This document shows positions 8,143-64,000 of a stretch of DNA of 64,000 nt, one piece after another. The position numbers and the translations under genes were made by a program. Under the pieces are notes generated by a model. That model ran no database searches. It was not told the DNA's origin and saw only the letters and a list, made by a program, of their open reading frames with translations. The stretch is taken from NCBI GenBank assembly GCA_028282585.1, contig JANQHR010000046.1, positions 32,001 through 96,000 on the forward strand, in the 5' to 3' direction. Numbering within the stretch: position 1 is the stretch's first letter; every line of letters starts with the position of its first letter. The DNA comes from Bacteroidales bacterium (GTDB lineage Bacteria; Bacteroidota; Bacteroidia; Bacteroidales; UBA12077).

Positions 8143-9969
8143 TTAAAACAATTCAAATTCATTATCTAAAGTAAAATCCATATTACTATTCCAGTCCTCT
8201 TCTACCAAGTCCAAATAAGTAGATTCAATTTCATTATCAAAATATAATTGAGTTGTTGGTTTAGAGATTACATCTACCCTATTGATATTTTCATATTCTT
8301 TTTGCAATACCTGAAATAATCTTTCTTCTGAAAAATTATGCTTTTTAAATCCGTTCTCCAGACATAACTTAATTGTTTCATTGGAAAAGCTGATTTCTTT
8401 CTCGTTGAATGTTGCATATTCTTCAATTATTGATAAAATAGTATCAAAACTATATTCAAGCTCAAAGAAGTAACAATACATCGAATTTCTATATATTGAA
8501 AATATTGAATTAAAGAGTGTTACAATTTTTGAGATAATTAGATCGTCCTTTTCAGAAATATCTTTAGGTTTAAACAATGTCATGTCCGCAGGTTGGTCAT
8601 TTTTATCTACATAATTATTTTTTAAATTTTGTAGATAATCATTGAAACTACTTACTTTCATATCCATGTTATGCTTTTTTGGATTAAAAAAAATCAGCGA
8701 TCCTGGATCTGTTGAAAAATTTGCATATTCAATTTCAACTAATCCTTTGTAATTAATCAATAAGTGTACAATAAATTTTAATGTATCGTAAATCGTTGAC
8801 TTTTTATCACCTACACAATAATATCCAAAAAAGAGTTGCGCTTTTACATTCTCTTTAGTCTTGATATAATCCAGAAAATCTATTATTTGATCATTTGAGT
8901 AAGAAATTCTTTTATCTTTATTAAGATATCTGACACTTTCCACGCCTGATTCTGGAGATACTTCAATAACTACTTGATTACAACTATCAGATAAAGCATC
9001 TATAAGTTCTTTAGAAGGTAAACGCCAACAACCATAACCATAATTAAACTCTAATTTTTCTAACTTGATTTTTTTTAATAATTCTATATACCACCTATCA
9101 CTGCCTTCTCTTTCCATACATGTATAGAATGTATTAAAACCAAGATTACATGCTTCTTTAATTGTTTTGATAACAGAATCTTGTGAACGAAATACAGTAG
9201 TAGTCCTATTATTCATTTTCTTTTGCGCAACTGAGTTTCCACCGCAAAATTTACATGCATACTGACAACCTCGACCAACTTCTAATAAAAACATAGGTTC
9301 TTGACTAATCGGCTGAAAATGTGAATAAAAAGTTGATGCGCTTCTATAGTATTCCCAGTTCCTTAATAATTCCACTTCAGTGAAATTTAAACAATTAAGA
9401 TTCTCCTCTTTTCCAACATATGTGATTTCACGATGAATTATTCTTCCCTCATTATTTTTCCAAGTAATGTTTTGTACTTTTTTAAGCTTCTTATCCAATA
9501 AAATTTTATCAAAATTACTTTTTAACTTTACTTCAGTAATTGCGTGTATAAGTTCTTTTATAGGTATTTCTCCATCACCTTTAATAACTGCATCAATAAA
9601 ATTAAATTCGTCAACAATTTCTTCAGCAAAAAGACTTGCCGAGAATCCACCTAAAAAACAAAAAAGATCTGGTTTTATTGATTTTAAATATTCTATAGTT
9701 TCAATTACTACAAGGCTTTCATTAATCCAATGACAATCAAACCCAACTGCATCCAGTGATTCAAAATTAAATATCTCTTCAATATTTTTACTAAATTCTA
9801 AATCGGTATGAATAATTTCTACTTCTACGCCATTATCCTTAAGGACAGATGCGAGTGGAAAGAGCCCCATAGGCATAAAGAATATATTTTTTTGATCCTG
9901 GTCATTTGAGTTTATTAAGCTTCTGTTCCCACAATGCACTAAATTAACACATAACTTATTATTGTTCAT
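8143..9969 (-). CDS. B12-binding domain radical SAM protein
   Basis: N-terminal PMGLFPLASVL, LGGFSAS, KGDGE (cobalamin-binding fold); CxxxCxxC in GRGCQYACKFCGG. Confidence 0.85.
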   Translation of the reverse strand: MNNNKLCVNLVHCGNRSLINSNDQDQKNIFFMPMGLFPLASVLKDNGVEVEIIHTDLEFSKNIEEIFNFESLDAVGFDCHWINESLVVIETIEYLKSIKPDLFCFLGGFSASLFAEEIVDEFNFIDAVIKGDGEIPIKELIHAITEVKLKSNFDKILLDKKLKKVQNITWKNNEGRIIHREITYVGKEENLNCLNFTEVELLRNWEYYRSASTFYSHFQPISQEPMFLLEVGRGCQYACKFCGGNSVAQKKMNNRTTTVFRSQDSVIKTIKEACNLGFNTFYTCMEREGSDRWYIELLKKIKLEKLEFNYGYGCWRLPSKELIDALSDSCNQVVIEVSPESGVESVRYLNKDKRISYSNDQIIDFLDYIKTKENVKAQLFFGYYCVGDKKSTIYDTLKFIVHLLINYKGLVEIEYANFSTDPGSLIFFNPKKHNMDMKVSSFNDYLQNLKNNYVDKNDQPADMTLFKPKDISEKDDLIISKIVTLFNSIFSIYRNSMYCYFFELEYSFDTILSIIEEYATFNEKEISFSNETIKLCLENGFKKHNFSEERLFQVLQKEYENINRVDVISKPTTQLYFDNEIESTYLDLVEEDWNSNMDFTLDNEFELF

Positions 9970-9995
9970 GTTATTATATTATTATGATTAACGGA

Positions 9996-12900
9996 TTAGT
10001 TATTTAAAATCAATTCTAAATTGCAATTAGAATATTTGTTTAAATAATTATTTATTTTTTCATCGGGATTATTCAATAGTTGATTAAGAAAATAAAAAAA
10101 CATTTTTTCAACTATTATCATTTTTTCTTTGGTATGAATATTTTCACAAAACCCCCATTCAATAACAATTCCATTCTTATATTCATGGCATAAGCAAAGA
10201 ATGTTTTTAACTTCTTCGCTTAGTTGTTTTGTTTTATTTCTGGAATTTATATTATATAAGCCTTTATATTCTGACTTATATTTATGGTGGTTCAAAGTTA
10301 AGATTGCCATATCATCTTTTAAATTATCATAGGATATCCCAAGATCATTGGCAAGAAGTAAACTTGGATACATTTGATAATTCATTGCTTCAGTAAAATC
10401 ACGACTAACTGTTTCCAAATAAGTGGCTCCCGTATGTGTATCATCTATATTCACAGGAAGAAATATCTCATTTGCAATGAATCCGATTATTTTATTAACA
10501 TCAATATTTTGTCTGCAAGCAACAGGACATCTTACTACAACTTCCTTTTCGTTCTGTAATTTAGACATTACCAGGTTCATTGCAGCTAATAATACTGTAT
10601 ATACATTGTAATTTTTATCTATAGAACATTTTATTATATGCTCATAAATTTCAACAGGAATAGGACTATGATAAGTAATTAAGTTTCCTTTTTTCTTATT
10701 ATTATTTGAAGAATTACCTAACTTAAGTTTTAATTTTTCTGTTGCTTTAAATAATCCTTTAATCCAAAATCTCTTTAACTCTTCACCATATTGACTTTTT
10801 ATTAAATCATATAAGCGTTCAGAGTAGTCTTTATAGTTAATTTTTAATTGATTTAAATTTTGATTGTTTTTATTGCCAATACCTTGCTTATATAAACTTT
10901 GTAGTTCCTTGATAAGTAAATTAGACGACCATATATCGAACAAAATATGATGTATCACAAAATAAAAAACGTAATTATCATTTGGTAAACAGAACAGTTT
11001 CATTCTTATTAAACAATCTTTTTCCAGATTAAATGGTTTATTATAATCTGTTTTTATTTGTTGTTTCAATTCTGATATATAGTCCTTTTTATTTTCTATG
11101 ACAATTTCCTCAAGATTAAAGTTTAGTTCACTCAAGCTTCGTACTTTCTGTCTAAGTTCTCCATTAACTTTTATAAAATTCGTTCTTAAATTTTCGTGTT
11201 TATTTAATAAATTTTTAACTGCATTCTTTAAAGCAGGTTTATCAATTTTGCTTAAATTTATGGTTCCTTTCATATTTGGATTCACACCTTCCATTAAGGA
11301 TTTAATAAAGAAACTTTGTGAGTATGTTAATGGGTAATATTCCTTCTTCTCAATTGGCCTTAGTACGTAACTGTTTTCGCCTTTATTTGCACCCGATCTA
11401 TTAACGGTTTTAATGAACTTGCTTAAATCTGAAATAGTCGGATATTTCATCAAATCAGCCATAGTTACCTTAATATCAGATTTTTGGAGCTCTGCAGAAA
11501 GCTGCATTGCTTTTAAGGAATCTCCACCTATTTCAAAAAATCTATCGGTACTTTTAATCGTTTTCAAATTTAAAACCTTACTCCATGCATTATAAACCAA
11601 TTCTGACAGTTCATCTCTTTTTTCATCATTTCCGGAAACATCATCTTTAATAATATCCGGTAATGCATTTACATTAATCTTACCACCAGATGTTAAAGGT
11701 AATTTTTCGATAATTTCGACGTAATGCGGAATCATGTAGTAAGGTATTTCTTTTGACAGATAATTTCTTATTTCATCTTTTGTAATAAACTCGTTAGTAA
11801 CAACATAAGCACATAATACTTTATCTCCATTATCCTTAATTCTTACTAAAACCGCTGCATCTTTAATTCCATAAATTTTTAACAAGCACGTTTTTACTTC
11901 GCCAAGCTCAATCCTAAAACCTCGAATTTTTACTTGTTCATCTTTTCTTCCAGCAAATTCTATATTCCCATCAGGCAACCATTTTGCCAGATCACCAGTC
12001 TTATACATTATCTGATTTGGAGAATATGGATTTTTTATAAATTTTTCAGTAGTTAATTCTACGTTATTTAAATAGCCATCACTAACACAAGGTCCTCCAA
12101 TAAATATTTCCCCAATAATGCCAACCGGAAGCATTTTAAGATCTTCATCAAGAATATATATATTCTTATTAGCCACTGGTTTTCCAATTGGTATTTTTAC
12201 ATTTTTTTCGTATCCTTTAACCAGATGGCGTGTAGCTGTAACGGTAGTTTCCGTGGGTCCGTATTCGTTATAAAAATCTAACTGCTCATACAAACTTTTA
12301 ACATGATCTGATTTACATTCATCACCTCCCATAACAATTTTACCCAGATTTTTCAATCCTTTCAATTTCAAATTTTGTAAGTAAGCTGGCACCATATACA
12401 AGCAAGTCACCGCCTTTTTATTTATGTAATCTTCAAATTCTATTTTATCGAGCATTAAGGATTTTTCAATCGAAATAAGTTCCCCTCCAGTCAATAATGG
12501 TAGCCAAAACTGTTCTACTGATGCATCAAAAGACATTGGAGAAAATAACAATACTTTATCACTACTATCTATATTTATATCATTAATTAATGGTATTAAA
12601 TGATTTAACACTTTCCCGTGAGTGATAACTACTCCTTTTGGTATACCTGTAGAACCTGAAGTATAAATTATTTGCGATATATCATAGGATGATATCTCAC
12701 ATAACTCATTATATTTTGTAATGTTTTCTGAATAATCATTGTCACTTAGATTAACAATATTCAAATCAAGATCTAAACTATCTTTTAGTTCCTCTGCTGT
12801 AAGGATTATCTTAGACGAACTATCTTTGATATAATACTTTATTCTTTCGACAGGTGTTTCAGAATCAATAGGTAGATAGGCAGCGCCTGTCTTCAAAATA

Positions 12901-63223: not shown

Positions 63224-63315
63224 TTTAATTTGATTAAAACTTCGACGAAATCTAAGAGTTACTTTGTTTATAGACGTTGATTAATATTCAGATATTTTCT
63301 TAACTGTTAAGTGTG

Positions 63316-64000
63316 TTAAAAATTAAATGAAGAATCATTTATATCGGAAATATTTGTAATTACCTCTTTTTTAGTATTATTCTTGATAACCTCCATACCA
63401 TCTTTATCAAAAGTATTGACACAAAAAGAAAAATCTTTAAATCTGGTAATCCTGAATGTATTATCATCATGCCTTTCTTCCTCTACTTCATCAGAATAAC
63501 TTCTTGCTCCAAGAACCTCATTTAGTACATTCCATCTACGCGCAATTTCTCCATCCTCCACTTTATTACTGAATCCTGTTGAAGTAGCACCATTTACATC
63601 GCTGTACCCAAAGTGTTTAACTTTATTAAAACACTTATCTTTTTTAAAAAATTCGGTTAACTCATTAAAAATTTCAATAGTTTCTCCTGGGAAGCCTACC
63701 ATAATATCTGCAACCATATGCATTTTAGGATTATCAAATTTTATTTCCTGAATTGTATCGTATAACTTGGTTAAGTTAATAGGTCTTCCCATGCGGTCCA
63801 GGATGTGCTCATTAACGTGTTGCAGCCCTATATGCAATTCATTTATCCATCCTTTTTTACATAAATCCTTTATTTCAGTTGAGTACTTCTCTAACCATCT
63901 AATATGTAAATAACTAAAATAAAGATTTGCCAATGGAACAGCATTTTTTATTTCATGAACTAGTTCTATTATTGTTTTGTTGCTATCGATTCCATAGGCA
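63316..64000 (-). CDS. 3' part of a MiaB/RimO-like radical SAM protein (5' end outside the window)
   Basis: Frame is open to the window edge (AYGIDSNKTIIEL...); LHIGLQH, ILDRMGR, DIMVGFPGET, FGYS match the methylthiotransferase-type barrel; the Cys motif is not visible. Confidence 0.65.
   Translation of the reverse strand, partial: AYGIDSNKTIIELVHEIKNAVPLANLYFSYLHIRWLEKYSTEIKDLCKKGWINELHIGLQHVNEHILDRMGRPINLTKLYDTIQEIKFDNPKMHMVADIMVGFPGETIEIFNELTEFFKKDKCFNKVKHFGYSDVNGATSTGFSNKVEDGEIARRWNVLNEVLGARSYSDEVEEERHDDNTFRITRFKDFSFCVNTFDKDGMEVIKNNTKKEVITNISDINDSSFNF

Follow-up and report, generated by a model that had tools for sequence, protein, structure and literature searches.

An aromatic C-terminal tail as a candidate docking motif for half-condensation-headed modules in a radical SAM-rich peptide synthetase cluster

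Layout of the assembly line

The window analysed here, a stretch of 64,000 nucleotides from a Bacteroidales bacterium (bases 32001-96000 of a 121-kb contig, 4.9-Mb genome; 28% G+C), carries all its long open reading frames (ORFs) on the minus strand and holds part of a nonribosomal peptide synthetase (NRPS) gene cluster which, by Pfam and motif checks, runs on upstream of the window as far as the contig end. NRPS subunits that end in a condensation (C) domain and stand-alone radical S-adenosylmethionine (rSAM) enzymes of this cluster share a short acidic aromatic tail with the core [DE]-[FYW]-x-[F/I/L]-COOH, most often D/E-F-D/N/G/E-F. On comparative grounds, this tail is probably a conserved disordered C-terminal short linear motif (SLiM) that docks its carriers onto NRPS modules headed by half of a C domain (half-C).

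Gene names such as 63316 or 20086 give the lower window coordinate of a minus-strand ORF. Domain calls are from Pfam, and the presence of the HHxxxDG motif was checked separately. In the following list, in transcription order, A is an adenylation and T a carrier domain, and B12-rSAM denotes a cobalamin (B12)-dependent rSAM enzyme.

Outside the window, upstream: first listed subunit, ..C-A-T-C; tail EEEDFTF
Outside the window: second listed subunit, half-C-A(rSAM/B12)-T
Outside the window, next in transcription order: FkbH-like, dehydrogenase and methyltransferase genes
Outside the window, upstream of 63316: polyketide synthase-NRPS, KS-AT-KR-DH-ACP-C-A-T-C (Pfam); tail EEEFNF
63316..64000 (minus): C-terminal 227 aa of a 442-aa MiaB/RimO-like rSAM protein (Pfam UPF0004 and Radical_SAM), the full gene extending beyond the window to 64644; tail ..DINDSSFNF at 63316-63345 including the stop codon, directly upstream of the half-C head of 56027
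56027..63223 (minus): NRPS, 2398 aa, half-C-A-T-glycosyltransferase-C-A-T; half-C at aa 18-259 (about nt 62447-63223); aliphatic beta-hairpin-type tail EEVEIII
50924..55870 (minus): TubC_N beta-hairpin head-C-A (embedded rSAM/B12 unit)-T (Pfam); tail KKITI
49237..50895 (minus): B12-rSAM; aliphatic tail ..LEIELELSI; next NRPS head (38993) beta-hairpin, not half-C
47928 (minus): hydrolase gene, between 49237 and 38993
38993..47812 (minus): beta-hairpin-like head-C-A-T-C-A(rSAM/B12)-T; tail EEIRI; head recognised only by a hidden Markov model (HMM) built from this cluster, Pfam TubC_N missing E 0.001
34216..38988 (minus): beta-hairpin head-C-A-T-C; end ..NRLFSYGDK, an aromatic F-x-Y plus three more residues; final 14 nt overlap 31041
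31041..34229 (minus): N-terminal full-length C-family domain without HHxxxDG (degenerate C)-A-T; tail ENVII
29369..30919 (minus): stand-alone beta-hairpin (TubC_N) and Condensation protein, 516 aa; tail ..YGDSFGNF at 29369-29398
28371, then 27253 (minus): small rSAM, then aminotransferase, between 29369 and 21797
21797..27202 (minus): 1801 aa, half-C-A-T-second C-family domain-terminal C; half-C at about aa 1-260 (nt 26423-27202); tail ..INELNDFAI at 21797-21826
20086..21813 (minus): B12-rSAM, 575 aa, overlapping the start of half-C subunit 16493; tail ..DLDINNWNF at 20086-20115
16493..20098 (minus): half-C-A (embedded methyltransferase)-T; half-C at aa 6-258 (nt 19325-20098); tail QVIEI
14728..16389 (minus): B12-rSAM of a family named 'PhpK family' by NCBI; tail ..LGIPELDF; next head beta-hairpin
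9996..14669 (minus): last NRPS subunit, beta-hairpin head-C-A-T-terminal C-family domain without HHxxxDG; end LELILNN
8143..9969 (minus): B12-rSAM, 608 aa, the final biosynthetic gene ahead of the ABC transporter genes; tail ..LDNEFELF, with F-x-x-F spacing

Tails in the window and in the genome

A first-pass annotation of the window had quoted six such tails, and each of them is the true C-terminus of a minus-strand ORF, exact to the letter. Proteins 29369 and 21797, described there as ending in a C domain and preceding a half-C protein, do end in a Condensation domain, and the next NRPS subunits (21797 and 16493) start with half-C. Subunits ending in a carrier domain were said to have aliphatic tails instead, which is true of all five in the window (VEIII, KKITI, EEIRI, ENVII and QVIEI), each of them preceding a beta-hairpin head. 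On this contig, all four C-ending subunits that stand before half-C heads have an aromatic tail (DFTF, EFNF, FGNF, DFAI). The rSAM carriers had been called unrelated, which is incorrect for three of them: these belong to paralogous families of class B B12-rSAMs. The class B enzymes 20086, 14728, 8143 and 49237 combine a B12-binding and a radical SAM domain (PF02310 and PF04055), and the cysteines of the radical SAM CxxxCxxC motif (C281, C285, C288) are invariant across the 20086-family alignment. One counter-example had been overlooked: B12-rSAM 49237 ends in LEIELELSI. It is 45% identical to 20086, and the tails of the two paralogues differ, ELSI standing before a beta-hairpin head and WNF before a half-C head. 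As a single case, 49237 may be an rSAM recruited via the beta-hairpin docking system instead.

Three of the six quoted tails have the strict core (SFNF, WNF, DFAI). In FGNF (29369) and FELF (8143) the aromatic spacing is one residue wider, and ELDF (14728) has Leu at the place where its family has Phe. Since the family motifs are well conserved, [AE][DE]FDF for 14728 and [DE]F[DE][IFL] for 8143, the ends of these two proteins are degenerate copies. Against the genome as a baseline, 234 of the 2774 ORFs of at least 200 aa (8.4%) end in F, many of them resembling outer-membrane proteins; [FYW]x[FYWLIM] ends 132 (4.8%), and [DEN][FYW]x[FYWLIM] ends 31 (1.1%), four of the latter lying inside this cluster. 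AlphaFold2 models, confident for the rest of the chain, present the tails as disordered C-terminal ends: in 29369 (mean predicted local distance difference test score, pLDDT, 87.6) the tail residues 500-516 fall below 50, as do residues 543-575 of 20086, modelled from a shallow alignment.

Conservation of the tail in four rSAM families

Conservation among homologues, the test that the annotation had proposed, was found in all four rSAM families. The 8143 family (120 homologues) has 48 strict tails, 16 near ones and eight with F-x-x-F spacing, mostly of the form [DE]F[DE][IFL]. Among 120 homologues of 14728, 85 tails are strict and 12 near, mostly EFDF or DFDF. This family gave 1917 hits at E <= 1e-20 among the candidates scored, and the half-C and tail pairs of metagenomes appear to number in the hundreds. 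The 63316 family (110 members) has 58 strict and 10 near tails; its closest 60 or so members nearly all end in [GE]DF[GE]F, more distant members of about 400 aa are without the extension of about 30 residues, and none of 10 distant MiaB/RimO proteins has the tail. In the 20086 family the conserved core ends in NAVPxLVDF, followed by 20-35 variable residues and then the motif. Conservation in the four families is limited to the last 4-5 residues, beyond a variable stretch; that these are kept while the preceding 20-35 vary points to selection on the tip itself. The other comparison proposed, inside versus outside NRPS loci, found the tail nearly absent outside: of 195 distant B12-rSAM relatives whose loci contain no NRPS genes, 2 have a strict tail, neither of them acidic. 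Tail-less members of the 8143 family often end in PQIWLDxxx or PKIxF.

Tail and next head across related clusters

The tails were compared with the head of the next NRPS subunit in a pooled survey of 33 stretches, drawn from the own contig, a genome of the same genus (G230), genome G148, and Aminicenantes-class and other genomes and metagenomes (28-58% G+C, several phyla; L and G numbers label stretches and genomes). Further loci were found by scanning species genomes and metagenomes with an rSAM alignment; L102, which nearly duplicates L101 and contains frameshifts and X, and L105, which is almost the same as G230, were left out before counting. A strict tail is [FYW]-x-[FYWLIM]-COOH, usually [DE]-F-x-F. 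The counts cover 56 C-ending NRPS proteins, all with a complete C-terminus, and 45 stand-alone rSAMs of the four families.

C-ending NRPS, next head half-C (n = 40): strict 36; tail plus up to three residues 2; none 2
C-ending NRPS, next head A (6), C (1) or other (1) (n = 8): strict 0; extended 0; none 8
C-ending NRPS, next head degenerate full-length C (n = 5): strict 2; extended 1; none 2
C-ending NRPS, nothing downstream (n = 3): strict 2; extended 0; none 1
Stand-alone rSAM, next head half-C (n = 35): strict 27; near 5; none 3
Stand-alone rSAM, other or no next head (n = 10): strict 0; near 1 (own 8143); none 9

For C-ending subunits, half-C heads differ from A, C and other heads with a Fisher p of 1.3e-6, a value overstated because related clusters are not independent. 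Seen from the head, an upstream NRPS gene is in view for 42 half-C heads; in 40 of these cases the preceding subunit ends in C, and in 38 one or more strict tails occur upstream. At 29 of the 40 junctions, the C-ending and half-C subunits are separated by at least one gene. Strict tails also end three U32-like proteins encoded upstream of half-C heads. Members of the 14728 family ahead of A-headed subunits lack the tail (L214, L220).

Close homologues of 20086 are found in two other genomes out of 401 searched in the same order. The same-genus genome illustrates the arrangement with three junctions:

G230, junction 1: C-ending NRPS (DSQDYLL), B12-rSAM (EDNFLF) and U32-like protein (LNDFNL), then a half-C subunit
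G230, junction 2: stand-alone C (IQDFDF), B12-rSAM (TNDFDF), U32-like protein (AEDFKF) and a B12-binding protein without tail, then a second half-C subunit
G230, junction 3: the second half-C subunit, ending in a C domain (SFNFSSN), then a third half-C subunit

In G148 an rSAM ending in DSDFTF abuts a half-C subunit. The motif recurs at 39-58% G+C, which argues against an effect of A+T composition, and the arrangement at 40-58%; in a metagenome-assembled Aminicenantes genome of 53% G+C, an NRPS ending in C (DDEDFDF) and an rSAM (QDDFEF) precede a half-C head. Homologues of 14728 occur in 8 of 201 genomes of that class, with up to seven per genome, and the 18 stretches around them are packed with a cassette of T-C subunit with tail, rSAM with tail and half-C subunit. 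Two loci are consistent negatives: in L100 the tails are DQFPQS and EDLLNT and the head is a full-length C with an N-terminal extension, and in the SAR324 locus L020 the rSAM stops right after its catalytic core, no half-C being found nearby.

Several further observations concern the junctions. At six C/A junctions without half-C the downstream subunit starts with A (L103:3-1700, L214, L216, L217, L220, L209), and the upstream tails are non-aromatic (RFQRND, NLEEE, DLEED, LTNRD, DLSF, EIIRE); these ends and those of the 8143 family may represent further docking types. A small non-B12 rSAM and a class I/II aminotransferase form a conserved pair upstream of half-C, in the window (27253-29339) and in the Aminicenantes-class stretch L222 (5011-7102); the pair is without tail, and in both loci the preceding C-ending subunit is an exception to the strict tail. 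The U32-family proteins with tail are about 390 aa long and end in DFNL, DFKF and GFDL (L016:6168-7352, L017:6126-7295, L211:12638-13798). The U32 family includes oxygen-independent hydroxylases, which makes these proteins candidate on-line hydroxylases. An rSAM is fused to a condensation N-lobe piece in L109:9908-12742, L022:4409-8131 and L110:9923-13465.

The half-C head

In 56027, 21797 and 16493, the half-C head matches no more of the Pfam Condensation profile than positions of about 175-454, ahead of the A domain. These heads comprise about 250 aa of the C-lobe only and start within 20 residues of the N-terminus. HHxxxDG was not found in the half-C head regions of the window (in 56027 it is absent from the first 1400 aa), and the intergenic gaps are too short for a missing N-lobe. 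The beta-hairpin profile TubC_N (PF18563) has no match in these three heads but is present in 9996, 29369, 34216 and 50924, and the AlphaFold2 model of 29369 has the helix and strand order H-E-E-H-H at residues 5-63. All seven half-C heads examined with Pfam from other loci and phyla likewise match only Condensation positions 185-456, without TubC_N.

An ordinary C-A linker connects the half-C with its A domain: in 66 of 72 cis linkers, those of half-C included, the C HMM end and the A HMM start are 26-27 residues apart. A comparison of 36 half-C heads with 104 full C domains reveals a signature, in which a strand [ND][ML]IFxFx[RK] takes the place of KFDLTLxAx[DE], two further positions hold K/R in 86-89% of heads as opposed to 22-26% of full C domains, and the C7-type arginines are lost. 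In this strand F180, F182 and R184 are the residues of the subunit immediately upstream of the window, and F179 and F181 those of 21797. The ordinary cis C-A linker reads LSxEEKxxLL[YI][DE]FN[DN]T, and in cis modules it is expected at the C/A interface. The tails of C-ending subunits often retain its start (LSxEEK..), and their tip resembles its [DE]FN motif, but at other distances: strict positional homology was rejected, as tail lengths after C cluster at 15-18, 21-23 and 38 residues and the linker's [DE]FN lies at about +10. Mimicry of condensation motif C4 (YxD[FY]AVW), where the half-C begins, was also rejected, the aromatic spacing being different. In a natural fusion (P0089), an rSAM is followed by a half-C, 20 aa and EDEDFEF, so that the tail comes after a C-lobe as in C-ending subunits.

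Tails that share a half-C head were compared in 25 heads served by at least two tails. Identity at position -2 is 62.5% versus 27% in shuffled data, and none of 10,000 shuffles reaches the observed value; at position -5 it is 42.5% versus 15% (p = 2e-4), and at -1 72.5% versus 59% (p = 0.04). Cases in point are FNF/FNF in this cluster and, elsewhere, DFGF/DFGF and DFDF/DFDF/DFKF. Genome composition may contribute to this likeness, so a specificity code is only hinted at. Complex prediction between the half-C-A-T part of 56027 (850 aa, 10-row alignment) and the last 35 residues of 63316 scored 0.28, below the mark of 0.32, and is given no weight in either direction.

Docking and its alternatives

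The comparative evidence makes a strong case for docking. In the mechanism that we propose, the tail would mark proteins working on an NRPS module whose C domain was split off. Such a module would start with a catalytically dead half-C, formed by the C-terminal lobe without motifs C1-C4 including HHxxxDG. Carriers would be of two kinds: the upstream subunit, ending in a functional C domain, and trans-acting, oxygen-independent tailoring enzymes encoded between the two subunits, namely three B12-rSAM families, a MiaB-like rSAM family and U32-like proteins. The half-C would keep the A domain functional and act as a landing pad. The tail would bind there through its free carboxylate, its pair of hydrophobic side chains and the acidic residues beside them, and the FxFx[RK] strand specific to half-C is a candidate binding site. 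A docked tailoring enzyme could then reach the amino acid loaded on the carrier domain of the module, and the trans C domain would dock on the same pad for condensation, the rSAM possibly acting on the loaded carrier beforehand. The pair would parallel the aliphatic xIxI tail and beta-hairpin pair at the T/C junctions of the same cluster.

A more elaborate version appears doubtful. It describes a portable docking pair in which each half-C head would have its own matching residues at tail positions -2 and -5, a single landing pad would be contested by the trans C domain and the tailoring enzymes, the split C domain would open time for an oxygen-independent radical enzyme to act on the carrier-bound amino acid before condensation, and beta-strand addition would join the [DE]-F-x-F tail to the half-C strand I-F-x-F-x-[RK].

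The first-pass annotation had proposed that the tails dock both upstream C domains and tailoring enzymes onto half-C/A modules. The conservation of the tails and their tracking of the head type agree with this, and the annotation's own refuting condition, unconserved tails, does not hold. The following points weigh against it. The receptor, be it the half-C, A or T domain, is assigned from co-occurrence only, and a covariation analysis of 41 half-C heads with two tail features (last residue F versus aliphatic; position -2 acidic versus other) found no column above the 95% shuffle threshold. Two of the four rSAM tails quoted in favour of half-C docking, the degenerate ones of 14728 and 8143, have no half-C head downstream and adjoin a beta-hairpin-headed subunit. 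Exceptions before half-C heads include the C-ending subunits of L222 (..RITIGV) and the own 29369 (FGNF, of wider spacing), as well as three free rSAMs without tail. Conversely, two of the five C-ending subunits before a full-length degenerate C head have a strict tail, which suggests that the half-length form is not strictly required. The surveyed clusters are kin to one another, so that shared descent inflates the counts, and the classifying HMMs were derived from the window's own cluster.

The most serious competitor, which we consider unlikely but worth keeping in sight, is a real docking motif whose receptor is not the half-C: the binding site of the tail would lie on the module's A or T domain or on a further partner, and the half-C would be a mere structural support for the A domain, like C* of ACV synthetase or ADA. 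C-lobe-only domains N-terminal to A are needed for adenylation in those systems, with a structural role proposed (PMC7884236). The lack of covariation in the 41 heads agrees with this alternative, as does the resemblance of the C-ending tails to the [DE]-F-N part of the cis C-A linker. However, all six A-headed subunits, which have the same A-T chemistry without half-C, follow C-ending subunits that lack the tail, three free rSAMs with A as the next head lack it as well, and a conserved signature, with additional basic and aromatic residues, sets the half-C heads apart.

Co-inheritance of tail and half-C as a duplicated gene cassette, with no functional link, is improbable. The clusters are indeed related, and the cassette of C-ending subunit, rSAM and half-C subunit repeats many times within single genomes. 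Yet the last 4-5 residues are conserved beyond 20-35 variable ones, among close paralogues the tail is lost or altered precisely where a different head type follows, and the same tail is found on unrelated folds (C domains, B12-rSAM, MiaB-like rSAM, U32-like).

More improbable still is a reading in which the aromatic tails bind TubC_N-type domains as just one more form of the SLiM known from beta-hairpin docking. Both tail types place hydrophobic residues at -3 and -1 next to charged ones, tailoring enzymes bearing SLiMs have already been reported (Kosol 2019, as cited in PMC9113145), and 14728 (ELDF) precedes a beta-hairpin head. Against this, the HMM from this cluster found no beta-hairpin head in the 18 tail-rich Aminicenantes-class stretches, and the beta-hairpin heads of the window are each already paired with an xIxI tail. 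The annotation's view of a code separate from beta-hairpin docking is therefore supported by the comparison: tails abound where no beta-hairpin head is found, and the seven half-C heads from other phyla are without TubC_N.

Chance or composition, an A+T-rich genome favouring F, N, I and D at protein ends, is scarcely credible, for although 8.4% of the genome's long ORFs end in F, the strict motif ends 4.8% genome-wide, compared with 36 of 40 C-ending subunits and 27 of 35 rSAMs before half-C heads, and is conserved at 39-58% G+C.

Comparison with known systems

The half-C and aromatic-tail pair would be best seen as SLiM-based NRPS docking in a form that we did not find described: a full-text literature search, with most subscription journals outside its reach, returned no description of such a pair or of these rSAM-rich NRPS clusters. 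In its accessible part, a 2021 review of docking domains divides those of NRPSs into COM, PAX and beta-hairpin/SLiM classes, the last with TubC_N (PF18563) and the tubulysin, rhabdopeptide and enacyloxin systems as examples; it notes SLiMs on some tailoring enzymes, and that part mentions no C/A-junction pair of this kind (PMC9113145). As described there, a disordered few-residue C-terminal motif of the upstream partner is read by a downstream N-terminal domain, and one receptor can serve several tail-bearing partners. The present ligand is likewise short, C-terminal and, by its pLDDT below 50, predicted to be disordered. The differences are that the present head is a C-lobe-only Condensation remnant followed by A, not a hairpin domain of alpha-beta-beta-alpha-alpha type; that the motif is aromatic at -3 (mostly also at -1) with Asp/Glu beside it; that the tail comes after a C domain, or is borne by rSAM/U32 enzymes, instead of following a carrier domain; and that the junction is C/A, not T/C.

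The nearest relatives of the half-C itself are C*, of ACV synthetase module 1, and ADA, of fungal alpha-aminoadipate reductases, both required for adenylation. As far as the accessible text of PMC7884236 goes, these too consist of the C-lobe of the condensation fold before A, without N-lobe, HHxxxDG or motifs C1-C5, but head initiation modules or reductases without an upstream C partner, and no docking tail is described. In contrast, the present half-C heads elongation modules that would be served by a trans C domain and tailoring enzymes, 40 of 42 following a C-ending subunit.

The X domain of glycopeptide NRPSs recruits P450s, and the interface domain recruits stand-alone Asp beta-hydroxylases. 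These are likewise dead members of the condensation family that bring trans tailoring enzymes to carrier-bound substrates. They differ in being full-length C folds that bind globular surfaces of oxygen-dependent enzymes, whereas the half-C is a C-lobe of about 250 aa, and we know of no C-terminal linear motif shared by their partners. Their nearer analogue is the degenerate full-length head (31041; L213, L107). Two full-length C-family domains of the cluster lack HHxxxDG, the N-terminal one of 31041, whose upstream partner ends in FSYGDK and overlaps it by 14 nt, and the C-terminal one of 9996; the latter, flanked by the degenerate-tail rSAM genes 14728 and 8143, could be an X-domain-like platform. 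The tail itself recalls the acidic aromatic C-terminal tip of the bacterial single-stranded DNA-binding protein SSB (..DDDIPF), a hub motif in which acidic residues and a terminal Phe with free carboxylate also end a disordered tail. Proteins and process are unrelated, however, and there one tail serves many receptors, while here many tails would serve one receptor.

Other features of the cluster

Three A domains (in 50924-55870, in 38993-47812 and in L002:4955-10255) are interrupted by a radical SAM and B12-binding unit, inserted at AMP-binding profile positions of about 125 to 160. The two parts stand in the reverse order of the stand-alone enzymes, radical SAM first and B12-binding second. 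The same interrupted architecture is found in Aminicenantes-class loci, where the insert resembles the 14728 family. In 56027-63223, a GT4-type glycosyltransferase domain (aa 887-1198, approximately) lies between T and the next C domain. At the cluster end, a 1024-aa protein (2610-5684) consisting of a beta-lactamase-family domain and an ABC-transporter ATPase has a MacB/FtsX-type permease gene (5750-8122) as its neighbour; it may have a role in export or in self-protection. A 120-aa ORF at 167-529 matches Pfam CBF_beta (core binding factor beta) with E 5e-7, above the curated cut-off, an odd match for a bacterium.

Significance

Docking pairs determine how the subunits of a peptide assembly line are ordered, and they belong to the small number of parts that engineers can transfer from one system to another. 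If the docking reading is true, a second pair at the C/A junction, without cross-talk to the beta-hairpin pair, would give engineers a new handle, and cobalamin-dependent rSAM C-methylases, methylthiotransferase-like and U32-like enzymes acting on carrier-bound amino acids would have their first recognisable address tag. For genome mining the rule would be to assign a free rSAM ending in D-F-x-F to the half-C-headed module that comes next, which would help in predicting the modified residue of the product. The pairing recurs across phyla of mostly uncultured bacteria (Bacteroidales, the Aminicenantes class and others), whose NRPS chemistry is almost unexplored.

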